64,000 nucleotides of DNA from an uncultured Acidobacteriota bacterium (GTDB lineage Bacteria > Acidobacteriota > UBA6911): NCBI GenBank assembly GCA_963773605.1, contig CAVZBT010000018.1, positions 65,071-129,070 on the forward strand, given 5' to 3'. Below the pieces are notes generated by a model. It was not told the origin of the DNA. It did no database searches and saw nothing but the letters and a program-made list of their open reading frames with translations. A program made the translations under genes and the position numbers. Below are positions 2,665 to 57,995 of the stretch, piece by piece; position 1 is the stretch's first letter; every line of letters begins with the position of its first letter.

Positions 2665-3138
2665 ATGCAGAAGATCAGCCCATTTTTGTGGTTCGACACT
2701 CAGGCAGAGGAAGCGGCGAATTTTTATGTCTCCATTTTCAGGAATTCAAAGATCCTGAAAATCGCCCGCTACGGAGAAGCAGGACCCGGCCCTCACGGTG
2801 GCGTGATGACGGTCGCCTTTGAGCTTGAGGGGCAGACCTTCATAGCGTTGAACGGTGGACCTCAGTTCAGATTTACCGAGGCCGTCTCTTTCTCTGTCGC
2901 CTGCGAGACACAGCAAGAAGTAGACGAGCTCTGGGAAAAGCTCTCCGCGGCCGGAGAACAAGGACCGTGCGGCTGGCTGAAAGACAAGTATGGATTGTCA
3001 TGGCAGATCAATCCAAGAATTTTGGGCGAAATGCTGAGCGATCCCGATCCTGTGAAATCGAAAAGGGTCATGGAAGCGATGCTTCAGATGAAAAAGATCG
3101 ACATTGCAGCGTTGAAGAAGGCCTACGACCAAAGATGA
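2665..3138 (+). CDS. VOC-superfamily protein, PhnB/YjdN-like (3-demethylubiquinone-9 3-methyltransferase-domain family)
   Basis: ATG at 2665 follows AGGAG (2651). The sequence '[25 protein letters not shown]...[13 protein letters not shown]' is typical of this family. Confidence 0.8.
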
Positions 3139-24527: not shown

Positions 24528-27500
24528 CTACCACAGGATCTTCATGCTCACCTGTCCGATCCTGGGAGCCCTCGCGCTTGTGACCCTGCCGAAATTCGAG
24601 CTGGTAAAGCTCCCCGACGGAGTGCCGAACTGCGCGTGGTTGAACGCGTTGAAGAACTCCGCACGGATTTGTACAGACCACCTCTCCGTGACCCGGGTGT
24701 CCTTGTGTACGGCAAAGTCCCAGTTGTTGGTGCCCGGCCCGTGGAAGAACCGCCGATTTGCATTGCCGAACCTCCCCAGCGGCGCGGCAACAAAAGCACC
24801 CTTATCAAAGTAGGTATGGGCCGTCGTCTCACGCGGCTCGTGGAACACGGGGTCTCCGACACGGTCCGGCACATCGATGCCCGACGCGCCCACCAGCGAC
24901 CGGTCGCCGCTCTGCGACAGCGTTATCGGGAAGCCGGTGGCAAACCGGGTGATGCCGTTGAGGCTCCAGCCCTCGACCAGGCGCCGCGGCCCACCGCCGA
25001 AGAGCCTGGCGAAGGGGAGCGTGTAGTTGTAGCTCACGACGAAATTGTGCGTGGCGTCGAAAGCGGAAAGGGACCGGCTCAAGGCGTAGTTCGAGTAATT
25101 CATCCGCGCCGTGAACGCAGACGAATTATCGATCGACTTGCCGAAGGTGTAGGCGGCCAGGAAGCTCAGGTTCGCGGCCCGCCGCTCGAGGGTCAGCTGC
25201 ATCGAGTTGTAGCTGGAGTTGGCTGCCGCAATCTGATAGTCGTTATGGCCGAAATCGTTCCCCAGAATGGTGCGGGTTCCGTACACCTTGCTGCCGTCGG
25301 GCCTGGTAAAGATCGTGTTCTCCTGGTTGGGACCGCATTGCACGGTCCCTGCCATCACGCCGGAGCCGCGCAGGCTCATGCAGAGGTTCGGGTCACCGGG
25401 GTTGGCCTCGATAAAGGACATGAGCTTGTGTCCCTGGGTGCCCACGTACGCCATGGTCATCACCATGGAACGGCTGAGCTGTCGCTGGATGGATAGGTTG
25501 TAGTGCTCCGCGTAGGGAAGCCCGTTGCTCGGAACGATTCCCGGTGAGCTGGAAATCGGGAGGAAGACCGAATAGTCCATGGTCTTGTTTTTCAGATCGC
25601 CGGGAGCTGGGAGAACGAAGGGGAATCGCTGCGTCTGGGAAGTGCCGTCAGCACGGGTGAGGAACGGTGTCTCGAAGAGCGGCGGTGAGATCGAAACCCA
25701 GTAGAGGCCGTAGGGAGCGTCACCCCAGATCTGGAACGTACCCGAGTCTTCGACCGCCGTGTAGTAGAGGCCAAAGGACGCCCGGATACTGGTCTTGCCA
25801 CCACCCAGTATTTTCCCCAGCACGCCGTCCTTGGTCTGCGGAGACCAGGCGAGGCCGAGCCGGGGCGCAAGGTTCTTGTAGTCGGTGGGTGCAATCGTCC
25901 TGGTCAGGGTACCGCCTTGGCCATCGGGATCGCCCGGCACAAGCCAACCCTTCGGCGCGGTTGGGAACTGAGTCGATTGCACGCCCGGAATGATCGCGTT
26001 GAGCCGATCGTAAATGTCGTACCACGGCATGCTGAATTCCCAGCGCAACCCGTAGTTGAGGGTGAGGTTCGGCCGCACCCGCCAGGAATCCTGGCCATAG
26101 ATGCCTAAGTACCTCGTCCGGGAGTCTATAACCTGGAGGCTCGACTGTGTGTAGTCGCGGGGAGCTCCCAGGAAGTAGTCGGCGTAATCGCTGCCTGTTT
26201 CGGAGCCGTCGAATGCGAAAATGCCGTTCGGCGCATAATAGTTGCGCCCGTTGATCTGGAGATAGCGGCCTTCCACGCCGAATTTCATGGTGTGGGTCCC
26301 GTGGAGCCTCGAATAACCTTCCGAGAAGCTCCAGCTGTTGTTCGGCTGGACCAGAGTCGGGTTCGCTCGTCCGAAACTGAAGGTGTTCGTGGAGATGATC
26401 GGCACGGCTTCCTCTCCGGTTCCGGAATTTACAATGCCGAGCGTGTTAGCTCCGGTTACAAATCCCAGGCTGGAGAGCGAGACGCTCGGATCCCCGGGAT
26501 TGAGCTGGTGAACCGATGTCCGCATGAAACTCACGCGGGCCTCATTCACCGCATTCGGGCCGAAGGTCTTGATGTTACTGAGCACAGCCTGCTGGGCCCG
26601 TCTGTCCGTGGTAGCCGGGAAGCCACCCAGGCTGGAACCGGCATTGGGATTGGCATCGGATGAGTCGTCGAAGTGATAGTAAACGAACCAGTTGCCGACC
26701 TTCTGGGTCATGATGTCGATACGTTGACCCATCTTTTCGTCCGTGATGCGGCGATTCGCACCTGCGCTCGCATACGAGCTTGCGCCGGAGTTGGGAAGAG
26801 GGATGTACTTCATCGTACCCTTCGCCGCCGCAGAATAGGCTTCGGCAGGAATCACGCCGTCCGGGAAGACAGAACTGTACGGGTCCCCGGCGGCGACGGT
26901 ACGCCCAAGGCGCTGGCTGAGCACCTGTGCCCAATGAGGGCCGCTCACCGTCCCTGTCAGGTTGCTGACGCCGATGTCCCCCCCCCGTTGCGCGGCTGTC
27001 GGAACCGTAACCAGGCCGGTGCTCACCCCCTGTATTTCCCTTGTGCCCTGATAATCGGTGAACCAGAAGACCTTGTTCCTGATCAGGGGACCGCCCATCG
27101 CGTAGCCGAACTGATTACGTTTCAGATCCGCGCGATTGGGATCGAAAAATCCGCGTGCGTCCAGCTGTTTGTTTCTCAGAAACTCGAACGCCGTGCCGTG
27201 GAAGCTGTTGGTCCCGTTTTTCGTGATGGCGTTCATGATCGCGCCGCTGAACCGGCCGTACTCGGCATCGAAGCTGTTGGTGATCAGCCGGAACTCGGAC
27301 ACGGCGTCGAGATTCGGAATGACCGCCGTACCGAAGTTTCTGCCTTCCCCCACGTCTCCGCCGTTCACCAGGAAGGAATTTGCCTGCTCGCGCTGCCCGT
27401 TGACGGACTGGTTACCCGCGGAGAGTCCGCCCGACACGCTGGCACTCGAACCTGTGCCGGCGCTTGACGGAGCAACCCCGGCCTGAAGCCCGAGCAGGTC

Positions 27501-27965
27501 GACAAAGCTGCGCCCGTTGAGCGGCAGCGTGAGTATCTTTTTATCGTCGACCACCTGTCCCATCTGGGTGTTGGTGGTCTCGACCTGAACCGGATTGGCC
27601 GTCACCTCAATCGATTCACTGAGGTTTCCAACCTGCATGGAAATGTCCACGCGGCGCTGCTCGTTGACGGTAAGAACGACGTCGTTGGCGGCGTACTTCT
27701 GGAATCCGCTCGCCGTGACCTCGATCCGGTAACGGCCCACCGGCAAGGCCAGGAAACGGTACTGGCCCTGATGGTCCGTAGCCACTCTCGTCGTCACGCC
27801 GGTAGCCGTTTCCGTAGCCACGACTGTGACTCCGGGGAGAACTCCGCCTGATGCATCATTCACAACGCCGAGGATGGAGCCGCCCGTCTGCTGAGAGAAC
27901 GCCGGCACGGCAAATGCGAGTATCAGGCCCAAAAAGAGGATCGTCCTGCGGGTATCGGGATTCAT
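24528..27965 (-). CDS. Oar-like TonB-dependent outer-membrane receptor with N-terminal CarboxypepD_reg domain
   Basis: An intact 1145-aa ORF with a signal peptide. 'GSILGVVNDASGGVLPGVTVVATETATGVTTRVATDHQGQYRFLALPVGRYRIEV' is the CarboxypepD_reg domain. It is followed by a plug and a long beta-barrel ending in an aromatic residue ('...GQVSMKILW'). Confidence 0.85.
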   Translation of the reverse strand: MNPDTRRTILFLGLILAFAVPAFSQQTGGSILGVVNDASGGVLPGVTVVATETATGVTTRVATDHQGQYRFLALPVGRYRIEVTASGFQKYAANDVVLTVNEQRRVDISMQVGNLSESIEVTANPVQVETTNTQMGQVVDDKKILTLPLNGRSFVDLLGLQAGVAPSSAGTGSSASVSGGLSAGNQSVNGQREQANSFLVNGGDVGEGRNFGTAVIPNLDAVSEFRLITNSFDAEYGRFSGAIMNAITKNGTNSFHGTAFEFLRNKQLDARGFFDPNRADLKRNQFGYAMGGPLIRNKVFWFTDYQGTREIQGVSTGLVTVPTAAQRGGDIGVSNLTGTVSGPHWAQVLSQRLGRTVAAGDPYSSVFPDGVIPAEAYSAAAKGTMKYIPLPNSGASSYASAGANRRITDEKMGQRIDIMTQKVGNWFVYYHFDDSSDANPNAGSSLGGFPATTDRRAQQAVLSNIKTFGPNAVNEARVSFMRTSVHQLNPGDPSVSLSSLGFVTGANTLGIVNSGTGEEAVPIISTNTFSFGRANPTLVQPNNSWSFSEGYSRLHGTHTMKFGVEGRYLQINGRNYYAPNGIFAFDGSETGSDYADYFLGAPRDYTQSSLQVIDSRTRYLGIYGQDSWRVRPNLTLNYGLRWEFSMPWYDIYDRLNAIIPGVQSTQFPTAPKGWLVPGDPDGQGGTLTRTIAPTDYKNLAPRLGLAWSPQTKDGVLGKILGGGKTSIRASFGLYYTAVEDSGTFQIWGDAPYGLYWVSISPPLFETPFLTRADGTSQTQRFPFVLPAPGDLKNKTMDYSVFLPISSSPGIVPSNGLPYAEHYNLSIQRQLSRSMVMTMAYVGTQGHKLMSFIEANPGDPNLCMSLRGSGVMAGTVQCGPNQENTIFTRPDGSKVYGTRTILGNDFGHNDYQIAAANSSYNSMQLTLERRAANLSFLAAYTFGKSIDNSSAFTARMNYSNYALSRSLSAFDATHNFVVSYNYTLPFARLFGGGPRRLVEGWSLNGITRFATGFPITLSQSGDRSLVGASGIDVPDRVGDPVFHEPRETTAHTYFDKGAFVAAPLGRFGNANRRFFHGPGTNNWDFAVHKDTRVTERWSVQIRAEFFNAFNHAQFGTPSGSFTSSNFGRVTSARAPRIGQVSMKILW

Positions 27966-28311
27966 GCATCCCTCCTGAGGATCTGGAGTAAGGAACTTTC
28001 ACGTGAGTTTGGGGCCATCTTCGGGGGATGGAACGGCGTAAGTCAAGAGAAATCCCGGTTCCTTTGACGCGAAGACGCGAGGGCGCGAAGGCTCAAAGGG
28101 ACTACTCGGGAGCGGGGCGGGCTTACCAGGATGCGGTGCGCGAGGTCTTGGCGGCGAACGCGAAACTTCTGGCGTTGGCACGCAGGCAACGGCTGATTTG
28201 AAACGCCCGGGGACACGACAGTGCCTGCGCTAAGCGGCCCGGTATCGGGGATGGGCGAGCTGTCTGCGGGGGCCGGGGGACGTCAGGCTTCGCCCGGAGA
28301 TTGCGGCGGGT

Positions 28312-29935: not shown

Positions 29936-30012
29936 TGGTGGGCCCAGCAGGACTCGAACCTGCGACCCGCTGATTATGAGTCAGCTGCTCTAACCAACTG
30001 AGCTATGGGCCC
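29936..30012 (-). tRNA. tRNA with CAU anticodon, most likely tRNA-Ile2 (lysidine type); elongator tRNA-Met not excluded
   Basis: The reverse complement 'GGGCCCATAGCTCAGTTGGTTAGAGCAGCTGACTCATAATCAGCGGGTCGCAGGTTCGAGTCCTGCTGGGCCCACCA' folds as a 77-nt cloverleaf with encoded CCA. The acceptor stem has C4/C5 as in E. coli tRNA-Ile2. Confidence 0.9.
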
Positions 30013-34162: not shown

Positions 34163-37100
34163 CTATCGGGGATCCCCCACCAGGACAAAGGGGGCCCAGG
34201 TGATGGGGCGACTGTCCTCCGGACGGGATGCGCCCCGGATAAGACTCAGCTGCGCATCCCGCAACGCGCCGGCTTTCGAAACACCACCTTGCGCGAGCAA
34301 TTCATAGAAGCGCGACGTGAGCCTGGACGTATCCGCATCTTCAGCGGGGAGGACGGTGGCAAGGACGGCGGGGGCGCCGGCACTCAGAAACGCCGGCACA
34401 AGTCCCCAGGGCATCTCTCCCCCAGCGACAGGTCCGATCCCCGTGTTGCAGCCTGCCAGTGTGACCAGCCGGTTGTGCGTCAAGCGCCATCGATGGATTA
34501 CCGAACTCTCCAGATGCGATTCATGCGGCCGCGCTCCGAACACCAGTGCGGGCATGCCGTGGCGCACCTCCGCGTGCCCGGAGAAGTGGATGATCTCGAA
34601 CATCCCCAAGGACGAATCCAGGGATCGCAGGTCGGCAAACGTCGCAATCCTGCTGTTCCGTTCAAAGAGCGCGCCGATCCGGGCCAATTCTCGTGCAGCC
34701 CCGGAGAGGTTCGAGGTGCCGTCCATCAGCAGAACCGTGGCACGCCGGGTGAAGTTTGCGGCCTTACCGGCAGCAAGGCAGGCATTCAGGACAGAGCGCG
34801 AAGGGGCAAACGACAGCGCATACCTCTCCAGCAGGTACCGACCGGCAGGATCGATCAAGCTGCCGAACGGCAGGAGATGGAGGGGACCGTCCGGCAGAAT
34901 AACCAAAGCCTGTACCGACGGCACCCCGATCGCCGGCAAAAGGGGACCGATCAGCGTTTCATACAGTCCCCGGGACAAAGTTGAGAATGACTCGGTGCTG
35001 CCAGTCCGGATACTCTCGGCATACTCTGCGGCAGAGGACTCCAATTCGTTCAGGGAAACATCCAGCCGAACGACCTTCGTCCCATTCTCGCCGGAAACAA
35101 ATGCGAAAGCCTGATCGGGGCAGAGGAAATACTCCACGGTGGCGGTGTGGGGCGGCAAGGGAATGGGCGTCCGGTTGACTGGCCGGGATGGGTTCGGCGC
35201 ATCCTGGGCATCGGCCCGGGCGCGAAGAGACTCCCGCAAGGTCATGGACTTGGCGCGATCGACGGCGGCGAGGATCTCGTTCGGCGCTTTCCGCAGATTG
35301 AGCAGCAACGGGATCATCTCGCGATAGGGATCGAAACGCCGGGCCAAAAAGGACCGGCGGAGGTCCGGCGAGGCTATGCGGGTCCGCATCCGTTCCAGAA
35401 CCCCGGCGGCGGTCTTGAAGTGCCGCAGCGCAGCCTCCTGATCCCCCGCCCGCACCAGGAGAAATCCGGACAGGCTATGGGCCTGCCAGGCCACTTCCGG
35501 CAGTGTGGTGGCGGCGATCTCCAGGGCTCTTTTCACCTCGCCCTCAGCTTCGGAGAGCCTACCCTTTTCGATGAATACCTGGGCAAGGCCGATGCGTGCT
35601 CGGGCCTCCACCTCCCTCATGCTCCCGAGGGGACGCTGCAACGCCTGCTCGAAATGGGACTGCGCCTCGGAGAAGTCCCTCAATTGCAGAGCCAGGGATC
35701 CTTCTTTGGTCAGCAGGTTCAGGCGGCGCGCCTCCGTCTCCGGCGTCGTCCGCAGCGTGCCATCGGAAAGCAGAGTGGTCTGGAGATACCCCGCCTCCGC
35801 ATAATACCTGCGCGCTTCCGGATATCGGGCCATCCGTTCCATGACGACGCCGAGGTTCTCAAGCGCAAGGACAAGCGACTCGTGATCCATCGTCCGGTAA
35901 GCTCCGGCCAGGGCGGTCGAATATTCCTGCAGACTGTTATGAAGCTGGTTGAGCTTGAGATAGGTTGCCCCGAGGGAGTTGCACGCAAATGCCGCCCAGG
36001 ACTGCAATCCGGAGGAATCGGCCAGTTGCTTCAGCCGGGAGAGTACCGCAAGAGCCTCGTCGTAGCGTGCCTCCTCGCCGTAGGACGAACTCAAAGCGGC
36101 CAGAGCGCGCGCAATGAGGTCGGGGTCCGTGGACAGTTCGGCCCGATGCAACATCCTCCCATACTCGACGCTGGCCCCGTTATAGTCGGACAGGCCATAA
36201 AATCGCGCGGTACCCCGCAGTTGATACAGTCGCACGAGCTGCCAGTGGTCTCCCATCCGCTCGAATCCGCTGACGAGTGCGTCGCTTCCTTTCAGGGCCG
36301 GGAGCATGCCGCCCCGGGAGAACGACGCTATGAGTTGTTCCAGGCGGGTATTCAGCTCGTGCCGGACCTTTCTCCGGGATGGGGGGAGACTTCGGCAGAA
36401 TTCCAGCAGCGCGTTTCCGCTGGTGTCGTCTGTAGCGGTGCGCCGCGCCGCCTCCAAAGTGGCGGCGGCCCACTGCGGGCCGGACGGATCTCCGGCGGTT
36501 TCCTGCGCTAAGGTCAACGATTCGAGGAGGAGGCTGCGGATTAAAGGAGGGATTTTCTCGGGGACGATGCGCGCGAGGCGTTCCAGGGCGGGTGCGTCCC
36601 TGGCCCTTGCGGCGCGTCGGACCTCGCGCTCCAACAACTCCGAGCGGTTCATGAGGATTCGGGTTCTGAGGTCTTTGAGTTTCCTGGCCCAAATCGAGTC
36701 GGGGTCCCGGCCGAGGTACACGTCAATCTCGCGCACGGCCTGTTGATGACGCCCCAACTCGAATAAGGTACGGACCTTGTTGAACCGGGCTTCGTTTGAA
36801 TCCGGTTTGAGCTGCAGTATGCCTTCAAAATCGGCCAGGGCGCCATCCAGTGAGCTGCTCCGCACACTGGGGTCGGTGGTGGCCATCGCTGCCTCAAACC
36901 GCGCGACCCCGCGACCCGACAGCGCCTGAGCATCCGCGCGCCCGGAATCGAGTATGTGCTGAAACTGCTCGATCGCCGGCCCGAAACGATTTTGCCGCAG
37001 GTAAATGTACCCCAAACCCAGCAAGGGTTCCCGCAGGCCGTTCTGGACTCCGAGCGCCCGGTTGAAAAACGTCTCCGCGTGCTCCAGGCTGCCGGCAGGT

Positions 37101-37591
37101 TCAGCACTCCGCTGCGACGCATCGGAGACGAAGGGTAGATCGAGCCGGAGGTCGTTTGGACTCCGGGCCGTGTAATCGTGTTGCAGGGCCGCACGCGCCT
37201 GTGCCGACAGAGTCTCGGCCTTCGCCGACTCGTAGAAACGGAGCGACACCGCGGCCAGGCAGAGAATGACTGCGGCCGCAGCCGCCACACCCCAATAGTA
37301 CCAGCGGCGCCGGGGCCTCTTGTTTGCCGCATCCGCGGACGTTGAGCGGATCAGGTCAAGGTTCCGTTGAATCTCGGATGACGCGCACTCCGGTTCTGCC
37401 TCAAGTGTGTCGCCGGCTTCCGGGTGAAGCAGCTGGAGCAGCCCGGCCAACTCCTCCCGGCACGCGGAGCAGCGCACCAGGTGCAGTTCGAGCTCTTCTA
37501 CGGACCGCGCTCCGGGGGATCCGGTCACATAGCCGTACAGATCGCCTTCGTCGAGGCAAGCGCTCTCCATTACCCTGATCTTTCGAGTCAT
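34163..37591 (-). CDS. Membrane-anchored anti-sigma (zf-HC2/ZAS) - TPR - CHAT (caspase-like protease) fusion protein
   Basis: An intact 1142-aa ORF. The N-terminus has 'HLVRCSAC' (H37-x3-C41-x2-C44). There is a single TM helix, 'WYYWGVAAAAAVILCLAAVSL' (aa 97-117). A helical TPR-like repeat region of about 650 aa follows. The C-terminal CHAT domain has 'IIHFSGHAEV' (His) and 'LVTLAGCNTG' (Cys). The start ATG overlaps the sigma-gene stop (ATGA at 37588-37591). Confidence 0.85.
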   Translation of the reverse strand: MTRKIRVMESACLDEGDLYGYVTGSPGARSVEELELHLVRCSACREELAGLLQLLHPEAGDTLEAEPECASSEIQRNLDLIRSTSADAANKRPRRRWYYWGVAAAAAVILCLAAVSLRFYESAKAETLSAQARAALQHDYTARSPNDLRLDLPFVSDASQRSAEPAGSLEHAETFFNRALGVQNGLREPLLGLGYIYLRQNRFGPAIEQFQHILDSGRADAQALSGRGVARFEAAMATTDPSVRSSSLDGALADFEGILQLKPDSNEARFNKVRTLFELGRHQQAVREIDVYLGRDPDSIWARKLKDLRTRILMNRSELLEREVRRAARARDAPALERLARIVPEKIPPLIRSLLLESLTLAQETAGDPSGPQWAAATLEAARRTATDDTSGNALLEFCRSLPPSRRKVRHELNTRLEQLIASFSRGGMLPALKGSDALVSGFERMGDHWQLVRLYQLRGTARFYGLSDYNGASVEYGRMLHRAELSTDPDLIARALAALSSSYGEEARYDEALAVLSRLKQLADSSGLQSWAAFACNSLGATYLKLNQLHNSLQEYSTALAGAYRTMDHESLVLALENLGVVMERMARYPEARRYYAEAGYLQTTLLSDGTLRTTPETEARRLNLLTKEGSLALQLRDFSEAQSHFEQALQRPLGSMREVEARARIGLAQVFIEKGRLSEAEGEVKRALEIAATTLPEVAWQAHSLSGFLLVRAGDQEAALRHFKTAAGVLERMRTRIASPDLRRSFLARRFDPYREMIPLLLNLRKAPNEILAAVDRAKSMTLRESLRARADAQDAPNPSRPVNRTPIPLPPHTATVEYFLCPDQAFAFVSGENGTKVVRLDVSLNELESSAAEYAESIRTGSTESFSTLSRGLYETLIGPLLPAIGVPSVQALVILPDGPLHLLPFGSLIDPAGRYLLERYALSFAPSRSVLNACLAAGKAANFTRRATVLLMDGTSNLSGAARELARIGALFERNSRIATFADLRSLDSSLGMFEIIHFSGHAEVRHGMPALVFGARPHESHLESSVIHRWRLTHNRLVTLAGCNTGIGPVAGGEMPWGLVPAFLSAGAPAVLATVLPAEDADTSRLTSRFYELLAQGGVSKAGALRDAQLSLIRGASRPEDSRPITWAPFVLVGDPR

Positions 37592-38286
37592 CTCAGCTCC
37601 ACCGTTCCAACCGAACGCGCCGCCGCGCTTCGGATTCGGTTCTTGAGACGATTGAGCACCTTTTCCACGCCCGTCTTGGACAACTTGAGGCCTCTGCAGC
37701 CGGCAATCTGGGCCACCGACAGATCATGGGCGAAGTAGAGTTTGAAGATCACCAGATCGCGCGCCGAATCCTGGCCGGAATTGCTTCTTATGGAGTCGAC
37801 ACTCATTTCGGTCAGCTCGCGGACCAGAATACCGCGTTCGATGGCGTGATGAGGAGCCAACGGGCCCGTGAGGTGTCGGGCCGTGTCCGCAAACTCCGCT
37901 GTCGCCACGATTTTGGGGCCGGGAACGCGTTTTTGGGCTCGGGTGCGGCGAAGATAGTCTCGAACTACGGAGCGGGTGATGACCGCCAGGTACGCCAGCA
38001 GCTCGGATTCCGTGCTCCCGGAAAAGCGTTTTATAGCCGCACAATCGTGTTCTATGAGCCGGACAATCACGTTCTGAAACAGGTCGTTTTCCTGTACCGC
38101 GTCCGGCAAGCCGGTGGGACACGAATACGATTTGTTGCCTTCCTGGCGGAGCGTACCCCGGATAAAGATCTTGATCTTCGGAGTGAAGCGCCGGAGAAAT
38201 TCCGACCAGAGTTCGGTGTCGTCCCTGTTTTCGGCACACAAAAGCAGCAACTCCACCGAGTCAAGTTGCGCAGGATCAGTCGCCAC
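37588..38286 (-). CDS. ECF-type RNA polymerase sigma-70 family factor
   Basis: The sigma-2 region is 'DLFQNVIVRLIEHDCAAIKRF...LLAYLAVITRSVVRDYLRR'. The sigma-4 HTH is 'DLVIFKLYFAHDLSVAQIAGCRGLKLSKTGVEKVLNRLKNRI'. Confidence 0.85.
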   Translation of the reverse strand: MATDPAQLDSVELLLLCAENRDDTELWSEFLRRFTPKIKIFIRGTLRQEGNKSYSCPTGLPDAVQENDLFQNVIVRLIEHDCAAIKRFSGSTESELLAYLAVITRSVVRDYLRRTRAQKRVPGPKIVATAEFADTARHLTGPLAPHHAIERGILVRELTEMSVDSIRSNSGQDSARDLVIFKLYFAHDLSVAQIAGCRGLKLSKTGVEKVLNRLKNRIRSAAARSVGTVELR

Positions 38287-46547: not shown

Positions 46548-46744
46548 GGCTTCCTCCGAACAAGCAAACCTGGATATGACAAACGGCAACGATACCATAG
46601 GGTCGGGGCTTCCGCAAAACAAAAACCAGGCTGAGGGTGCGCGACGCCAGGGTTGTCCGGCTGTGCCGTCGCGACCTCGGGATATGGAAGCCTGGAGCCG
46701 GTGACGACACTTTCCCTTCAAGGCTCCTCGAAGACGCGAAGAGA

Positions 46745-48677
46745 TCAGGAAGGGCAGGGGCGGAGTCCGAGGATGACGTTGGCGAGCGTCTGCAGGTCGA
46801 TGACATTGACGCTGCCGTCGGTGTTTACGTCGCAGCCTCCCGGATTCGGGGTGGTGCCCAGGATAACGTTGATCAGGACCTGAACGTCGATCACGTTGAC
46901 CGAACCGTCGCGATTTATGTCGCAGCCGCAGCAGTTCACGACGAAATCGGCCGCGCTCACCGCACTCCCGGCGGGGGTGGCGACCGTGACCTTGCCCGTG
47001 GCGGCCCCGGCCGGCACGGTCGTCGTGATCCGGGTCGGTGAGACCACGGTAAATGCCGCGGCGACGGTCTTGAACCGGACGGAGGTGGCCCCGCTGAATC
47101 CGGACCCGGTAATTGCGACCGGGGTGCCGGCGGCGCCGCTCGACGGCAGGAGGCCGGTGATCACGGGCCCGGACGAGAGCGTCGTGGCGGACGCTTCGTT
47201 CGAATATCCCGAGTTGCCGGAAGCGCCCAGGGCCTGGACGCGGTAGAAGTAGGTGGTGCCGGTTGTGCGCCCGGTGTCGGAAAAAGACAGCACGTTGGCC
47301 GGGGTGCTCCCGGCCTGTTGCCACGATCCGGCCCCGTCCCGGCGCTCGATCCGGAACCCGGTCTCGCTCCCGCTGTTGTCCTGCCACGCGAGGTTGATCC
47401 GGGACGTGGAGACGGCCGTGGCCGTCAGCGACGACGGGGCGCGCCGGGACTGTCGGTCCCGAGGTCAGGCATGCCCAGTTTTGCTCGACATGGCTGCCGA
47501 TCTCGCCTTTGGAAAACGGGCAGAATGTGGTCCCGGTCACGACGAAGCTGTTCATGACCGTGTTGGCGCAGTCGGGCTGGGGCGGGTCCGCCTGATCCGA
47601 GTGCGAGGCGCCGAAATTGTGGCCGATCTCGTGCGCCGTCAGGACGTACTTGCCCGGCGCGACGCCGTACTTCTGGGAGATGCCGTAGCTGAAAGATCTC
47701 GTGTCGCAGACGACGCCGAGATATGCGATCCCGACCGTGCTGCCGTCCATGTCCTTGCCGGTCCACATGTGCGCGAAGTCATACGGGATCGAGTAGTAGT
47801 TCGCATTCCAGTAGGACCGGAACTCCTCGAGCATGCTCGACGCGGCGGTCGACTGGTAGGGGTAGGAGTCCGATACGGCAGTCCAGGCGTGCTGGTAGCT
47901 CACCTGGAGCGAAATGCCGAGGTTGGTCTCATAAATCCCGGAGACCTGGTTCATGATGTCGAGTATTGCGGCGTTGGCCGCGGCCGCGCCGCCGCAGTAC
48001 AGGACGTATTCATAATCCGCTTCGGTGGCGACATCGGCCGCATAGCTCCCGGCCTCGAGTTCGCCGGCCTGGGAGGCGGCCCGTTGGCGGGCCGCCCCTA
48101 TCCGGTGAGCCAGGCTGGTGCCGCAAATGCCGATCGCGTCCTCCATGATGTCCGACCGCCGGTAGACCGCGAATTCCGATGCGGGGGCCTCGGGCGAATA
48201 ATTCCGAAGCGATTCGAAGTAGTACCATTCGCCGGGAGTGAGGATCACGCCCTCAAACAGCGCGTCGTCGACCGAGAACCGGGCCTGGGCCCCGGGCATG
48301 CCTGCAACGGTGCCCCTGTAGGTCCGGCGGGGGCTCTCGGAGGCCGGGCGGCGCCGCCCGTCGGCTCCCGTCTCTTCCGCGAAATAGCCGGGCGCCCTGA
48401 GATCGGACGGTTCAAGCTGGACGTCGAACTCGAGGCTGGGGGTCACCAGGTGGAGGCTCCGGCCGGCACGGACCTGGCGGGCGGTCTCGACCGTGTCCAG
48501 GCGCATCGCCTCATGCTGCCGCACGAAGCGCCGGATACCGGCGCCCGTATCCACGTTCCTGCCTCCGCGTGCGGACCCAAATTCAATGCCCCACAATACC
48601 GCGAGGGCCCCTGCCAGCAACATGGCTGGAGACTTCAGTGCGATCCGCGCTATCCGGTTCATGCTTGGCCTCGGCAT
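46745..48677 (-). CDS. Secreted metzincin (reprolysin/M12B-like) metalloprotease with FN3, IPT/TIG and dockerin-type modules; one frameshift near 47440
   Basis: The N-terminal frame carries the zinc site '[16 protein letters not shown]' (HExxHxxGxxH). After a shift at a C-run near 47440 the sequence continues with '[29 protein letters not shown]...YFYRVQA' (FN3), '[32 protein letters not shown]' (IPT) and '[23 protein letters not shown]...[23 protein letters not shown]' (two dockerin EF-hand-like repeats). Confidence 0.75.
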
Positions 48678-48846
48678 TCGTTGGGGGATACGGGCAACTT
48701 ATCGTCATCCGGAGGCCACTACGGTAGGGCTGTCTTGGGTACGGTGCCTCGGCATCGCCTTCCAGGGTTGTACCGGATCGGTACGCTCGGCCGGAGGGCG
48801 GCGGGCCGTGGACTTTATACGCCTCTGACGGTTTCGGCCTTGGTGT

Positions 48847-50244
48847 TCAGTCCGAGGCCCGCACAAGTACCAGGCGGCGGAACCTGCGGGCGCGGAGGTC
48901 CGACATGCACTTCTGGGCGCCTTGGAGGTCGAAAGGGCCCACGGTGACGGCGTACAGGCGGTTGCGCCTGCCCTTGTCCTCCACGCTGGAGTGGGCGCTG
49001 AAACCCAGCTGCTGCAACTCGCGCACAGCCGCGTCCGCCCGCCACTTTTCGCGCAGCGAGTGCACCCGGACGCGGTAGATTGCCGTGCCACCGGTCTTGG
49101 CGGCGGCGACCGGCTTGCTCGCCTTCGACGGCACGACCGGAGGCGGCACCGTCATTACGGCAGGCGCAGGTTGCGGCAGTGCCGACGCGGAGTCCGGAAC
49201 AGGGGAAACCGATGCGGCCACCGTCGCCGACGGGTCTGGCCGGATGCCGGACGAGGTCAGGATTCTGCGGGCTGTCCACAAGATCACCAGGGACGCCAGG
49301 GTGATGAGGGCCAAGGCCAGGGCGGGTTTGAGGCGCCTCGGCAACTTTAACGGCTGCGGCTGCCTGGTGTCGTCCTGTCCGCGCAGCTTGCGCGCCGCCT
49401 CCCGCACCATCTTGCCGGTGATCGTCCAGGAGCCTTCCGAGTATCCCGCGAGCAACGCACGATCGCAGATAAGATTGACCAGCCTTGGGTAGCCTTGTGA
49501 GAACTTGTAGACCTCGTTCAGGGCGCCGCGGGTGAAGTCCAGGCTCGGGGATGCCTGCGCGATTTTCAGGCGGTGGGCAATGTACCGGACCGTGTCGTCG
49601 GGCGACAGGGGTTTGAGCTCGTAGCGAATCGATATCCGCTGATTCAGCGACCGCAATTCGGCTGTCTTCAGCTTCTGCGTGAACTCGATCTGCCCGACAA
49701 ATATGATCTGCAGGAGCTTTTTCTTGGCCGTTTCCAGGTTGGACAGCAGTCTCAACTGCTCCAGGACGTCCGGCGACAAGTTCTGCGCCTCGTCGATGAT
49801 GAGTACGCAAAAGACGTCCTCCTCCGCCCGGTCCACGAGGAAGAAGTTGAGCTCGTCGATCAGCTCCTTCCGGGTCATGCCCTCCATCCAGTTCGGCTCG
49901 TCGGGGGCGGGTTCCAAGTCGGGACCTGGACCCGCGCAGGCGTGCCTGCGCCGCTTGATGCCGAAGTCCTGAATGATGGCGCGGAGCATGTCCTCGGCCG
50001 TCAGCAGCGGGTCGAGTACGAGGGCCGTCTGCAGGCCGTTCTCCAGCCTGCCGAGCAAAGCCCAGCACAGTGTGGTTTTGCCGGTGCCCACGTCGCCCAC
50101 GATGACGGTGAACCCCTCCCTGCGCCGAATGGCGTAGAGCACCTGGTCCATCGCGGCCTGGTAGTTCTGGTTGAGGAAAAGGAACTCCGGATCCGGAGTC
50201 AGGCTGAACGGATTCTCCTTGAGGCAGTAGAATGGTTCGTACAT
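48847..50244 (-). CDS. ExeA/GspA/MshM-like AAA ATPase with a TM segment and C-terminal SPOR (peptidoglycan-binding) domain
   Basis: Walker A is 'GDVGTGKTT' and Walker B is 'VLIIDEAQNL'. 'GYPRLVNLICDRALL' is present. The TM helix is 'ALALALITLASLVILW'. The C-terminal 'YRVRVHSLREKWRADAAVRELQQLGFSA...LYAVTVGPF' is SPOR-like. Confidence 0.8.
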   Translation of the reverse strand: MYEPFYCLKENPFSLTPDPEFLFLNQNYQAAMDQVLYAIRRREGFTVIVGDVGTGKTTLCWALLGRLENGLQTALVLDPLLTAEDMLRAIIQDFGIKRRRHACAGPGPDLEPAPDEPNWMEGMTRKELIDELNFFLVDRAEEDVFCVLIIDEAQNLSPDVLEQLRLLSNLETAKKKLLQIIFVGQIEFTQKLKTAELRSLNQRISIRYELKPLSPDDTVRYIAHRLKIAQASPSLDFTRGALNEVYKFSQGYPRLVNLICDRALLAGYSEGSWTITGKMVREAARKLRGQDDTRQPQPLKLPRRLKPALALALITLASLVILWTARRILTSSGIRPDPSATVAASVSPVPDSASALPQPAPAVMTVPPPVVPSKASKPVAAAKTGGTAIYRVRVHSLREKWRADAAVRELQQLGFSAHSSVEDKGRRNRLYAVTVGPFDLQGAQKCMSDLRARRFRRLVLVRASD

Positions 50245-50296
50245 GCCGGCCCCCTGGCGGGCGGCCGCAGGTCTGAGCGCGTCGCTCCCCTCCCCG

Positions 50297-53045: not shown

Positions 53046-53333
53046 TCAAGTCCGGCGCGGCGCGCACAACTGAAGAGACCGGACTTCGTCGCCCGTCGCG
53101 GTGCGAATTCTGGCCAGCAGTTCCGCCGAACAGGAGCGGAGGGGCTCGAGCCAGGTTTCGTCAAGCACTTCGACCAGGAGCCTGGAATCCTCGAATCGGG
53201 CCGGTCTGCACGCGGCCGCCAGCCTCTCGCCCAGAAGCCCTGGCCATGCGCCTTGCAGGCAGGCGACAACCCACTCGGCGTGCCGGGGAGAACCGCGGAA
53301 CAGCGAATAGATTACGGAAGAGACGGGCTGCAT
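53046..53333 (-). CDS. DUF721 (DciA-like) protein
   Basis: 'MQPVSSVIYSLF...WVVACLQGAWPGLLGERLAAACRPARFEDSRLLVEVLDETWLEPLRSCSAELLARIRTATGDEVRSLQL' fits the DUF721 pattern (W..vG..la....P..l.dg.L.v.v....W..eL). Confidence 0.7.
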   Translation of the reverse strand: MQPVSSVIYSLFRGSPRHAEWVVACLQGAWPGLLGERLAAACRPARFEDSRLLVEVLDETWLEPLRSCSAELLARIRTATGDEVRSLQLCAPRRT

Positions 53334-53341
53334 ACGGGCGC

Positions 53342-54380
53342 TCACCGGCCTCGCTTGAAATCGTCGACGTCCGCCTGGGCCTTTTTGATGAGCGCGCCCA
53401 TCTCCGGGTCGTCGGGCACAGAGCGGTCCAACGGGACGAACCGGGCGTGCACGCCGACGCTCTGGGATTGCTGCTGCAGCACGACCCGAACCTCGCTGAT
53501 CAGACGCCCTTCGTTGGCAGGCATCGAGATCAGGGTGTCCCCCACCAGCTGGGGCTCGGAAATCTCCTCGTAGTTGTGGGCCACGACGATCAGGTTGATG
53601 CTCGGGATGACGGCGGCCAGGCTGATCGCCTTCCCCACGCCCGCATCGATCATGATGACCCGGTAATCGCTCTTGGGCTGCATTTCCGCCATGACCTGCC
53701 GTGACCGCTTCCTGCGGGTCCTGCACCTCGAACTCGTCCCGGGAAATGCGTTCTTCCGGATCGTACAAAACTCCGCTGATGCCGATGCGCAGCTTCTTCC
53801 CGGTCTTGGGATCGACGACGACTTCCTTGAGGATGAAACGCTGGAGAGCCGGGAAGTTGGGCGTCTTCGCCTTCACGTTGGCCGAGACCAGCGGCAGGTC
53901 CAGGAGCTGGCGCGGCACCTGACCGGCAGCCGCCAGATCGGACATCTCCTGCCACCCGGACAGGTCCCAGGCCGTAAGGTTGAGGGCATCCAGGTTGGAG
54001 CGGTATGTCCCTTCGAGCATCCAGCGGTTGACCAAGGCAGCCTCGGCCACCCCGAGGTCGAACACCGAGCCCCCGTCCAGCCGCAGGTAGGGCCGCGCGG
54101 GGAACTTCCTGGCGAATGCTTTCCAGTAGCTTGTCCTGCGGGCGAAACCGCCCATCGGGTTGAACGGTCAGCCGCACGGGCCGTAGTTCCCGCGCAGGTC
54201 ACCCTGAATGAGGAAAGCGAGGTTGAAATCGGGCTCCCCCTCCAGTAGCTTTTCCGGGAACGTCGTCGCCGGGGCGGGCGCCGGTGGTGCGGGAGCCTGC
54301 TGCCGGGCAGTTCCCGGCGTCACCGCGCACAGGGCGGCAAGCAGGAGCGCCAGGGCCGTCGATCGTAATGGTTGTGTCAT
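53342..54380 (-). CDS. Secreted 5'-nucleotidase/metallophosphoesterase-like protein (degenerate metal site) with an in-frame TGA at 54168-54170 and one frameshift near 53698
   Basis: The signal peptide is 'MTQPLRSTALALLLAALCAV'. The frame reads '...FLIQGDLRGNYGPCG[TGA]PFNPMGGFARRTSYW...', and both sides of the TGA are in the same frame (54380-54155 is 225 nt). The later part, 'KSDYRVIMIDAGVGKAISLAAVIPSINLIVVAHNYEE', is in another frame. Confidence 0.6.
54140..54153 (-). other. Short GC hairpin (GGGCG-GUUU-CGCCC) 14 nt downstream of the in-frame UGA; weak bacterial SECIS candidate
   Basis: The minus strand reads 'UGA ccguucaacccgau GGGCG GUUU CGCCC g'. The loop contains GU and lies about 20 nt from the UGA. 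The stem is only 5 bp plus one possible U-G pair. Confidence 0.2.
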
Positions 54381-55434: not shown

Positions 55435-56296
55435 ATCAACCCCATTTCAGCTTCTCGCGCAGCAGGCGGAAAAAGCTCGTCGCCGGCGGCCTGGACCAGG
55501 CGCACAACGGGAACGGCCTTCCTGATCTTAAGCCGGTCGTTGGGTCCGAAGCGGCACCCCGATCTGGCCGTCGACGGTGAGCATCACATCCGCGCCGCGG
55601 CGCAAGTAAACGCCGATGACCATGCCGTCCGGGACCACCACGGGCCTGTTGGTCAGCGTGTGCGGGCAGATTGGCGTGATGATAAACGCTTCCAGGGTCG
55701 GGTGTAAGATGGGCCCTCCGGCCGAGAGCGAGTAGGCCGTCGAGCCCGTCGGGCTCGAGATGATGAGGCCGTCGGCCCGGATGAGCATCACGGGGTCCTT
55801 GTTCACGGTGACCTCGAGCTCGATGATCCGGGCGAGGGCCCCCTTATTTATGACGGCGTCATTCAGCGCGAGATGGCACCCGTCGGAGCGATCCCCCCGG
55901 AATACCTCCACCTGCAGCAGCATCCGGTCCTCGAGCAGATAATCTCCCGAGAGTAGCCGGGAAAAAACCTGTTGTACCTCTTCGAGCTTGACCTCGGTGA
56001 GAAATCCCAGCGAACCCAGGTTCACGCCGAGAATGGGGACGCCGCTCGCAGCCACCAGCCGCGCCGCATACAGGAGGGTCCCATCTCCGCCGAAGACGGC
56101 GATCACATCGACTCTGCCGGCAAGGTCTTCCGGGGCGGTGATGGTGCAGTTCGGGTATTGGCGCGCCGATTCCTGATCCAGGAAGACCTCGGCCCCCTTT
56201 GCGTGCAGCCATGGGATGATACTCGGCGACGATTGCGGGAACGCGGGGATCGTGACGCTTCAAGACCAGTCCCACTCTGGCAACGGGCGGATTCAT
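55435..56296 (-). CDS. nadK: NAD kinase, broken by at least 3 frameshifts
   Basis: The pieces are 'MNPPVARVGLVLKRHDPRV', 'VIAVFGGDGTLLYAARL...PILGVNLGSLGFLTEV', 'NDAVINKGALARIIELEV', 'DGLIISSPTGSTAYSLSAGGPILHP' and the terminal 'FFRLLREKLKWG' in a different frame. The ATG overlaps the tlyA stop (ATGA). Confidence 0.85.
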
Positions 56297-57079
56297 GCGG
56301 GGGATGATAGATCAGGTGCGAGTTGGAGGTACAACAAAAACTCCTCGTTTCCCTTTGCACCGGCGACAGGCGAAGGGATGCGGCCGCGCGTCAGGTACCC
56401 GGCGCTTCGGGCGAAGGTCGCGACCGCCTCGACGGCTTCGACCCTTTTCTCGGGACTGCGTACGATGCCCCCCTTGCCAACCTCGCCTTTTCCGACCTCA
56501 AACTGAGGCTTGACGAGCAGGGGACAACGGCGCGATCGCATGGGGGCGGACGCCTGTCGGGCCGTCCGAAAGGGCATCACGCAGGGGGATGAGGACCTTC
56601 GTGAGGGAAATGAACGAAAGGTCGGCGGTGATTATGGAGACGTCGTCGGGAGATCCCTGCGCGCTGACGTAGCGGACATTGAACCCGTCATGCACGACGA
56701 CGCGCGGGTCCGAGCGCAGTTTCCAGTCCAGTTGCCCCTTGCCGACGTCATAGGCATGCACCACAGCGGCGCCGTTCTGCAGCAGGCAATCGGTGAATCC
56801 GCCGGTCGAGGCTCCGAGGTCGGCGCAGACGCGACCAGCCACCCGGATCGCGAACGCGTCGAGCGCCGCCTGCAGTTTGGCCCCGGCGCGACTGACGAAC
56901 GGGGCCGGGCCAAGGACGCGGATGTCCGCGTCCGACCGGACCAGGTGTCCGGGTTTTTCCATCTTCTGGCCGTCGACGAGAATCTTTCCCGCAAGCAGCA
57001 GGGCCTGGGCCTTGTGGCGGCTTTCGGCGAGCCCGAGTTCGAACAGCAACACGTCGATGCGTCGCTTTTGCGCACTCAA
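56293..57079 (-). CDS. tlyA: TlyA-family 16S/23S rRNA (cytidine-2'-O)-methyltransferase, one frameshift near 56560
   Basis: TTG at 57079 follows GGAGG. The pieces are the S4-like 'RIDVLLFELGLAESRHKAQALLLAGKILVDG', the SAM motif 'ADLGASTGGFTDCLLQNGAAVVHAYDVG' and 'PLLVKPQFEVGKGEVGKGGIVR' in the second frame. Confidence 0.8.
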
Positions 57080-57105
57080 GAGAAGCCTCCGGCGGACGGT
57101 GCAGC

Positions 57106-57995
57106 TTACGTGGTGCGGCTCAGGATGAAGCGCGCGATCGTGCGGAGCGGCCCGGCGGGTGCGCCGAAATCGCTGAACGTCTTCGAGCGCAGCCGCGACC
57201 AGTTCGCGCGCCTTCGCCTGGATGCCTCGAGACCGTACAGCGCGGGGTAGGTCGCCTTCTTCACCTTCTGGTCCTTTCCTGCTGTTTTCCCGAGCCGTTC
57301 GCTGCTGGCGGTGATGTCGAGGATGTCGTCCACGATCTGAAACGCGAGTCCGACGTTGCGGCCATAGCGGGTCAAGACTCGCGCTCATTCGGACCCGCCC
57401 CGGCGGCAATAGCACCGCAACGCGTGCAGGCGGTCAGGAGCGCGCCGGTCTTGGAGCGGTGAATGTAGTCCAGGACTTCCGGGCCGATCGTCTTCCCTTC
57501 CGACTCGAGGTCGACGACCTGCCCGCCGATCATGCCGTCGCGCGTGCCGGTCGCGAAGCCGCGATTTCACGGATGATGGCAAGCCGCACCGAATCGGAGA
57601 TTCGCCGGGAAGGCAGGCGAGCGCCTGGTAGCTGCACGTCATCAGGGCGTCGCCGGCCAGGATGGCCATCGCGTCGCCGAAGACCTTGTGGCAGGTCGGC
57701 CTGCCGCGGCGCAGGTCGTCGTTGTCGAGCGCAGGCAGGTCGTCGTGGATGAGCGAATAGGTGTGGATCATTTCGATGGCGGCACCAAGGTGAACCAGGG
57801 TCGTCCTGTCGCCGCCGATCCCTTCGCCCGCGGCAACCACCAGGGTCGGGCGGATGCGCTTCCCGCCAGCGAAGATCGAGTAGCGCATCGCCCGGTGAAT
57901 CGTCGGCGGCTCCGATCGTCCTCGGCTGGCAGGAGGGCGTCGAGACACGCGTCGACTTCCTGCTTGATCTGCGAGAGGTAACGGTCAATGTCCAT
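57106..57995 (-). CDS. ispA: Polyprenyl (farnesyl/geranylgeranyl) diphosphate synthase, broken by at least 4 frameshifts
   Basis: '[15 protein letters not shown]', the first DDxxD motif '[27 protein letters not shown]', and the second motif '[12 protein letters not shown]...LGKTAGKD' are present. It sits in the conserved xseA-xseB-ispA context. Confidence 0.85.

Follow-up and report, generated by a model that had tools for sequence, protein, structure and literature searches.

The window analyzed here, a 64,000-nucleotide stretch of contig CAVZBT010000018.1 from an uncultured Acidobacteriota bacterium, carries on its minus strand a gene for a UshA-like protein that is interrupted by an in-frame UGA codon, which very probably specifies selenocysteine (Sec). 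The minus-strand frame runs from a start ATG at 54380-54378 to a true stop, TGA, at 53344-53342, and is broken at two sites only: a TGA at 54170-54168 and a one-nucleotide insertion (A, 53702). An earlier reading of this DNA, made from the sequence alone, had noted two open reading frames (ORFs) in the same frame that are separated just by the TGA at 54168-54170, and our ORF and frame reading bears this out. The upstream ORF (54168..54380, minus strand) comprises 70 codons and encodes a signal peptide followed by '...FNLAFLIQGDLRGNYGPCG', its C-terminal letters being '...GDLRGNYGPCG'. Past the TGA, the same frame resumes as 'PFNPMGGFARRTSYW...'. The features of the gene are as follows.

53342..54380, minus strand: whole gene for the candidate UshA-like CxU selenoprotein; homologues share its end position, and the product has 345 aa without the extra A at 53702
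54306..54380, minus strand: putative signal peptide, approximately residues 1-25, MTQPLRSTALALLLAALCAVTPGTA; read off the sequence by eye
54174..54176, minus strand: Cys69 codon TGC, the putative resolving Cys of C-G-U; an invariant Cys in 19 non-redundant loci
54168..54170, minus strand: UGA codon, predicted Sec71; TGA in 41 of the 41 sequences that keep the region, window included
54135..54158, minus strand: candidate bacterial Sec insertion sequence (SECIS); stem near-invariant across loci, with low codon entropy
53702..53702, minus strand: extra A causing a frameshift, probably an assembly indel error; located by alignment to the related locus L042 (GTC-CGG, versus GTCACGG in the window)

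Inspection of the signal-peptide sequence shows one Arg, a hydrophobic core and no twin-arginine motif. Cys69 is encoded by TGC in 13 and by TGT in 6 of the 19 non-redundant loci. In the mature window protein, Cys69 and Sec71 would be the sole Cys/Sec residues.

Conservation of the In-Frame TGA

A protein database search with the window protein yielded 78 homologues, approximately 72 of which are about 270 aa long and start at MGGFARR, five codons past the TGA column. Such starts are the signature of gene callers halting at an in-frame TGA. We read the DNA of 41 related loci, 8 of them from GTDB genomes (all metagenome-assembled genomes, or MAGs, of Acidobacteriota or Terriglobia) and the remaining 33 from soil, sediment or wetland metagenome contigs. 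TGA, and never TAA or TAG, is present at the column in 40 of the 41 loci, within the context '(G/D)PCG*(P/S)..(P)xGGFARR', and a hydrophobic signal-peptide N-terminus lies in frame 5′ of the TGA in all 40. Among 19 loci, the amino acids encoded 5′ of the TGA are conserved while third codon positions are free to vary. This protein-level conservation implies that the upstream piece is translated in the same frame. The same 40 loci display what is expected of a bacterial selenoprotein gene, namely a conserved in-frame UGA with coding sequence on both sides.

The one locus that departs from this pattern is L001, whose record title describes it as 'curated'. Approximately 80 nt, including the PCG-TGA codons, are deleted there (~2960-3004), such that '...LLEGM' is joined straight to 'MGGFARR', out of frame. 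This gap could be a real deletion, or an artefact of assembly or curation around an in-frame stop.

If the TGA were a substitution artefact of an error-prone contig, the true codon would be TGC or TGT. The contig does have errors, among them the frameshift at 53702 and frame breaks in ispA, tlyA and nadK. However, the documented errors are indels and not substitutions, and the same TGA recurs in 40 independent loci from varied assemblies and technologies (JGI, ENA and NCBI MAGs), which leaves this explanation with a negligible probability.

A different possibility is that the locus holds two genes, a small N-terminal ORF truly ending at the TGA and an independent gene beginning at the ATG at 54155. 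Public gene calls on the syntenic contigs L042, L043 and L044 are split in exactly this manner, giving fragments of 68-83 aa and 247-270 aa, and the frequent database starts at MGGFARR (~72 of 78) point the same way. Nonetheless, the frame is continuous in all loci, and the Met five codons past the TGA (window 54155-54153) is replaced by TCG in L003 and L029, by ACG in L028 and by CTG in L030 and L036, such that in these five loci the downstream fragment would have no start codon at the presumed position. Moreover, full-length Cys forms of the protein have an N-terminus homologous to the N-terminal piece, and a conserved GC-rich hairpin over the start codon (see below) would hinder initiation there. 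The sequence-only reading had named a separate N-terminal gene as a possible refutation of its proposal. This refutation failed, since strand 1 and motif I of the protein fold, like the signal peptide, come from this piece, and we judge the two-gene arrangement to be highly unlikely.

Cys and Probable Sec Alternate at the Same Column in the Wider Family

An exhaustive hidden Markov model search with four full-length homologues recovered 4,140 proteins at E ≤ 1e-3. The column was read in the best 150 representatives of this family, of which 119 cover it. C-x-C is found there in 114 of the 119, usually as (T/P)CGCP...RG(S/G)LAR. The sequence-only reading had named 'PCGC' as the motif of homologues and had expected the TGA to align with Cys. 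This holds, as most of these C-x-C motifs are (T/P)CGC, and the column is thus TGA in 40 of 41 related loci and Cys in 114 of 119 wider-family representatives. Two alignments were also checked singly. P0077, a distant homologue (26% identity), aligns without gaps with TCGCP opposite PCG[U]P, and P0079, the closest Cys form, has PCDCP with TGT as its Cys codon.

Three representatives (P0207, P0214 and P0221) carry C-G-W at the Sec column. Their Trp could be a real TGG, or a TGA translated as Trp under genetic code 4/25; the latter, if true, would hide further Sec forms. In addition, 13 of the best 150 representatives start right past the column, and these may be considered further Sec candidates.

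Three close homologues lack the TGA, and the partner Cys has been lost from them as well:

P0001 (locus L045): Cys codon TGC→GGC, Sec codon TGA→GGA, motif GGG
P0002 (locus L046): Cys codon TGC→GGC, Sec codon TGA→TGG, motif GGW
P0033 (locus L047): Cys codon position ACA, Sec codon position GAT, motif TGD

Correlated loss of Cys and Sec is expected if the two residues act as a pair.

A Conserved Hairpin 3′ of the UGA Codon

The small hairpin that the sequence-only reading had placed 14 nt downstream of the TGA was confirmed as GGGCG-GUUU-CGCCC at 54153-54140 (minus strand), with the intervening sequence CCGUUCAACCCGAU. An added U·G pair (54154/54139) extends the upper stem-loop to UGGGCG-GUUU-CGCCCG (54154-54139), below which are a 2×2 internal loop and then a CC/GG pair (54158-54157 / 54136-54135). 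The upper helix begins 13 nt past the UGA, and the apical loop, which opens with an invariant G, lies 19 nt past it. This UGA-to-loop spacing is within the usual range of the bSECISearch model. Among 31 distinct sequences, the same consensus 6-bp stem and G(G/U/C)UU loop are found, with only two stem substitutions, both of which give G·U pairs. A conserved apical-loop guanosine has been highlighted for bacterial SECIS elements (PMC2398784). As in bacterial SECIS elements such as that of E. coli fdhF, the hairpin lies within the coding sequence directly 3′ of the UGA, and its 4-nt apical loop opens with G. In contrast to those elements, it matches no Rfam family, its upper stem is short (6 bp), and no bulged U could be shown. 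Rfam searches gave no match at gathering thresholds in the window as a whole, and in 54080-54200 the matches at E ≤ 10 were just noise; Rfam holds no usable bacterial SECIS model.

Several observations weigh against the assignment of this UGA as a Sec codon. The minimum free energy of the window hairpin is -13.2 kcal/mol (z = -0.07), and 83 of 200 shuffled sequences fold as well or better. No compensatory covariation was detected in the stem by RNAalifold and pair counting over the 31 distinct sequences; shuffle controls for covariation carry no signal, owing to a stem that is almost invariant. The hairpin is short, and the nucleotides of its stem are at the same time codons of a conserved peptide, GGFAR. 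Two of the TGA-less homologues, P0001 and P0002, retain the hairpin, which would fit a recent loss of Sec. Beyond the hairpin, no selA, selB, selD or tRNA-Sec gene is present in the 64-kb window or in the flanks retrieved, a result that is uninformative for the rest of the genome. The window copy of the gene has a frameshift and so could be inactive. Finally, the loop equivalent to the CxU site is of low confidence in a structural model of P0001 (residues 61-69, pLDDT <50).

With the single-sequence fold at chance level, the significance of the hairpin rests on comparison among homologues. Because the stem encodes GGFAR and covariation is silent, we measured synonymous-codon diversity in the 19 loci, which are mutually less than 90% identical. 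The stem codons are nearly fixed: Gly is GGC in 18 of 19, Phe is TTC in all 19, Ala is GCC in 18 and Arg is AGG in 17. The stem Gly has the lowest entropy of 17 conserved Gly columns (0.30, versus a median of 1.71), the stem Ala the lowest of 10 conserved Ala columns (0.30 versus 1.64), and the stem Arg the lowest of 10 conserved Arg columns (0.59 versus 1.59). Likewise, the lowest-entropy five-codon window of the gene is formed by the hairpin codons (0.57, versus a gene mean of 1.31). Variation is free at the two sites where no pairing is predicted, namely nucleotide 2 of the loop and, in the internal loop, the third base of the CGY codon. The hairpin is broken in the TGA-less locus L047 (P0033, the most diverged), where the codons have drifted to GGT GGA TTC GCG CGT CGG, and in the Cys form L048 a GGA in place of GGC creates an A·G mismatch in the middle of the stem. 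Assignment of the hairpin as a SECIS, with models of which the sequence-only reading had called its spacing compatible, therefore gains support from its conservation in all TGA loci, from an apical loop with an invariant G just past the UGA, and from the lowest synonymous diversity in the gene.

Decoding of the UGA Codon

TGA serves as a stop codon elsewhere in the window, ending this gene as well as dciA, maf, xseA, pnp, the DUF5719/propeller gene and others. Since UGA terminates this gene and its neighbours, it is not reassigned, and read-through at 54170-54168 must depend on context, which is also the case in Sec decoding. A global reassignment of UGA was rejected on the same grounds.

Searches for Sec machinery with ARAGORN, motif regular expressions for SelD, SelA and SelB, and Pfam on approximately 20 window ORFs were negative, and tRNA scans of 27 related loci found no tRNA-Sec. 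A scan of the window for other in-frame TGA candidates was swamped by noise at 62% GC. Acidobacteria are documented as Sec users (PMC1794560), one Sec-using acidobacterium being Occallatibacter riparius (PMC12013277).

The UGA might instead be read through without a Sec system, by an opal-suppressor or allo-tRNA, by a tRNA(Sec)-like tRNA(Cys), or under a reassigned code, with insertion of Cys, Ser, Trp or Gly. Suppressor-like non-canonical tRNAs have been reported in Acidobacteria, and selC*-type tRNA(Cys) in other phyla (PMC5389517). Furthermore, the three C-G-W representatives of the wider family, and the genuine TGG of P0002, place Trp at this column. Against this, normal termination at UGA in this gene and its neighbours makes the recoding context-dependent, a conserved hairpin with a G-initiated apical loop stands at SECIS-like spacing, 114 of 119 homologues have Cys, and neither Trp nor Ser, at the column, and Acidobacteria possess the Sec trait. 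We thus regard read-through by a route other than Sec insertion as very unlikely.

We estimate a probability of about 0.9 that the TGA is a real Sec codon with a functional SECIS. Under this interpretation, the gene at 54380→53342 would encode a single exported protein of approximately 345 aa in which the UGA at 54170-54168 is decoded as Sec. As in the Sec pathway established for bacteria, the hairpin that starts 13 nt past the UGA would tether a SelB-GTP-Sec-tRNA(Sec) complex, which would hand Sec to the ribosome in place of release factor 2. We infer the dependence on SelB, the incorporation of selenium, the redox function proposed below and the route of export.

Frameshift at 53702 and Contig Quality

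The sequence-only reading also reported a frameshift near 53698. This frameshift is real and corresponds to the extra A at 53702, as located with L042, the closest relative (82% nucleotide identity). Removal of the A gives a product that reads ...QEAVRQVMAEMQ... and is collinear with all homologues; its length is 345 aa, and not 346 aa as had been calculated earlier. The inserted A does not lie within a homopolymer.

The neighbouring genes nadK, tlyA and ispA (window 55546-57915) each shift frame relative to the proteins called on the JGI contig L043, which indicates indel errors across the contig, in agreement with the earlier description of its quality. The L042 assembly has its own 1-nt indel inside the same gene, at the equivalent of window position 54092. 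Because ispA, tlyA and nadK are frame-broken and L042 carries its own indel, an assembly indel, rather than gene decay, is the likeliest origin of the frameshift at 53702.

The selenoprotein family could be real and the window copy nevertheless a pseudogene, inactivated by the one-nucleotide insertion. The frameshift is present in the sequence as given, and the inserted A falls outside any homopolymer. Yet the three adjacent housekeeping genes are frame-broken too, the indel in the assembly of the closest relative completes a pattern typical of assembly error, and both halves of the gene are fully conserved with no further lesion. A pseudogene is therefore unlikely.

Protein Fold and Predicted Function

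Pfam gives no match, including none to Metallophos, for the conceptual window protein. Its top NCBIfam match is NF041198 ('UshA_like_PCGU, UshA-like (seleno)protein'; E = 1.5e-22), with which it shares the P-C-G-U/C motif of the N-terminal UshA-like domain (GPCG-TGA in the window). The score, however, is 79.9 bits against an equivalog cut-off of 275, and the match covers positions 23-272 of the 519 in the profile. Other short forms score similarly, with 79.7-92 bits for the Sec forms L002, L005 and L031; the Cys forms reach 84 bits in the close P0079 and 58.7 bits in the distant P0077. The C-terminal half of NF041198 (approximately positions 326-519) is missing, as the window protein ends at about position 272 and contains no CXXCH. 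Relatives of 450-540 aa (for example, P0099 and P0136) score 190-250 bits, and in these the C-terminal half consists of a cytochrome c554-like tetrahaem domain, with four CXXCH motifs and PF13435. Still longer relatives of approximately 1,200 aa (P0093, P0158 and P0166) combine the cytochrome domain with DsbA-like thioredoxin domains. The scores against two related models are far below their cut-offs, at 38.5 bits versus 550 for SoxB (TIGR04486) and 18.1 bits versus 140 for NF049981, a family whose motif is CxxU whereas that of the window protein is CxU.

The fold was taken from P0001, a full-length homologue with 64% identity to the window protein, as modelled by AlphaFold (AF2; pLDDT 85, pTM 0.84). 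Foldseek matches this model to E. coli UshA, the c4898 5′-nucleotidase, Thermus SoxB and human CD73 (E ~1e-16, TMq 0.65-0.70). The metallophosphatase fold of the 5′-nucleotidase/UshA N-terminal domain is recovered with 1USH, 1OIE and 3IVD (E ~1e-16, TMq ~0.69). A sequence search of the PDB with the single window protein gave a best E of ~0.5, and a four-sequence profile yielded one weak but collinear match, to the Thermus 5′-nucleotidase 2Z1A (E = 3e-4). In the profile alignment, NDTHA becomes GDLRG, LDAGD becomes LDGGS and GNHEFD becomes NLTAWD, and the C-G-U is placed in the loop right past motif I. The corresponding ligand changes are H43→R, D84→S, N116→L and H117→T, and only the equivalents of D41 and H217 are kept. 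Hence, the protein does not have all of the dimetal ligands and the catalytic His (D-x-H, G-D, G-N-H, H, G-H). The C-terminal nucleotide-binding domain (PF02872) is also absent, with the window protein stopping where the N-terminal domain of CD73 stops.

Judged by these alignments, the product appears to be an exported, single-domain, catalytically degenerate 5′-nucleotidase/SoxB-like protein with a C-G-U site. A signal peptide would be followed by a metallophosphatase fold of the 5′-nucleotidase/SoxB type that has lost most dimetal ligands, and Cys69-Gly-Sec71 might act as a periplasmic thiol/selenol redox site that cycles through a selenenylsulfide. Such a site would resemble the C-G-C of many Cys homologues and the C-G-C/U of the tetrahaem-fused longer relatives. 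Three features suggest a redox role: the pairing of Cys with Sec, their joint loss in homologues, and the fusions to haem and DsbA domains in relatives.

Relationship to Known Selenoprotein Families

The UshA-like CxU selenoprotein type has been known since 2008, when 'COG0737, UshA-like' was a major family of the Global Ocean Sampling (GOS) selenoproteome, with 76 Sec and 92 Cys sequences (PMC2398784). The family also appears in reviews of 2022 and 2026, together with the models NF041198 (CxU) and NF049981 (CxxU) (PMC9312934, PMC13188914). Three selenoproteome papers that cover the UshA-like family make no mention of it together with Acidobacteria.

The window gene shares with NF041198 the alternation of Sec and Cys and a homologous 5′-nucleotidase-like domain at the N-terminus, in which the P-C-G-U motif is identical in both sequence and position. 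It differs in its length (~345 aa, compared with a 519-position profile) and in a score far below the 275-bit equivalog cut-off, in being without the C-terminal half that is tetrahaem cytochrome c554-like in the long relatives tested, and in its location in Acidobacteriota within housekeeping synteny (maf, gene, dciA). The N-terminal region is also distantly related to that of NF049981 (UshA-like selenoprotein family 2), against which three other Sec short forms score 24-31 bits. Here the motif spacing differs (CxxU, versus CxU in the window; PMC13188914), and the scores fall far below the 140-bit cut-off. Because the gene is homologous to the N-terminal domain of NF041198 but scores below its cut-off, has no cytochrome half and does not qualify for NF049981, we class it as a short-form acidobacterial member of the known type.

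The nearest counterparts in architecture are unnamed short-form C-G-C proteins of ~310-350 aa (for example, P0077, P0079 and P0081), for which neither Pfam nor NCBIfam has a separate family. They likewise consist of a signal peptide and a single degenerate 5′-nucleotidase-like domain, are collinear with the window protein end to end and carry the motif in the same column, but have Cys where the window has Sec. With UshA, CD73 and SoxB (1USH, 4H2I, 2WDC and 2Z1A), the window protein would share the N-terminal metallophosphatase-domain fold, as judged from the P0001 model. In contrast to those enzymes, its dimetal ligands are mostly replaced, PF02872 is missing, and a Cys-Gly-Sec is found instead in the loop past motif I.

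A more ambitious and rather doubtful proposal is that the acidobacterial short form constitutes an unrecognized third UshA-like selenoprotein subfamily: a stand-alone enzyme of the periplasm, with the dimetal centre of the metallophosphatase/SoxB scaffold functionally replaced by a Cys-Gly-Sec selenenylsulfide site. Such an enzyme might act on S-S or S-Se bonds (those of polysulfide, thiosulfonate or protein persulfides), and its nucleophile would be a selenolate in place of metal-activated water. If this were true, the fixed position of the gene beside maf and dciA in soil Acidobacteriota would mean that a phylum dominant in soil needs selenium constitutively.

The gene is split in every public call examined (JGI, ENA, NCBI and Logan) into a 68-83-aa orphan and a 247-270-aa fragment, the latter labelled 'hypothetical / 2′,3′-cyclic-nucleotide phosphodiesterase' and devoid of both the signal peptide and the active-site motif. 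Existing NCBIfam selenoprotein models miss the split gene because the short form scores under their cut-offs. With a model built for the short form, many annotations in soil metagenomes would be corrected, and acidobacterial selenoproteomes would gain one selenoprotein. The gene would provide another instance of Sec/Cys exchange at a C-x-C redox site, in this case on a catalytically 'dead' phosphatase scaffold, and the tetrahaem and DsbA fusions of its relatives offer a concrete lead to periplasmic electron transfer to the thiol/selenol site. The current understanding of Sec decoding is left unchanged by the window gene.

Genomic Context

The gene lies between two neighbours that have the same arrangement in L042, L043 and L044:

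54496..55275, plus strand: Maf-like protein, divergent neighbour (PF02545, E = 3.7e-55)
53046..53330, minus strand: DciA-like protein, downstream neighbour (PF05258, E = 5e-12)

Synteny of the window with these three contigs comprises xseA-xseB-ispA-tlyA-nadK, maf on the opposite strand, this gene and dciA. The maf/dciA surroundings are a housekeeping neighbourhood and give no functional hint.

Other observations concern more distant parts of the window. A segment of ~3.7 kb (46626-50295), which lies between rpsO and the DUF5719/beta-propeller gene and holds an ORF for a Reprolysin-like (M12B) metalloprotease, is missing from the otherwise syntenic L042. Two large genes encode a tetratricopeptide repeat (TPR)-CHAT protein (34166-37723; 1,186 aa) and a TonB-dependent-receptor-like outer-membrane beta-barrel that has a CarboxypepD_reg domain (24531-27998; 1,156 aa). 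A lone tRNA-Met is located at 29936-30012.

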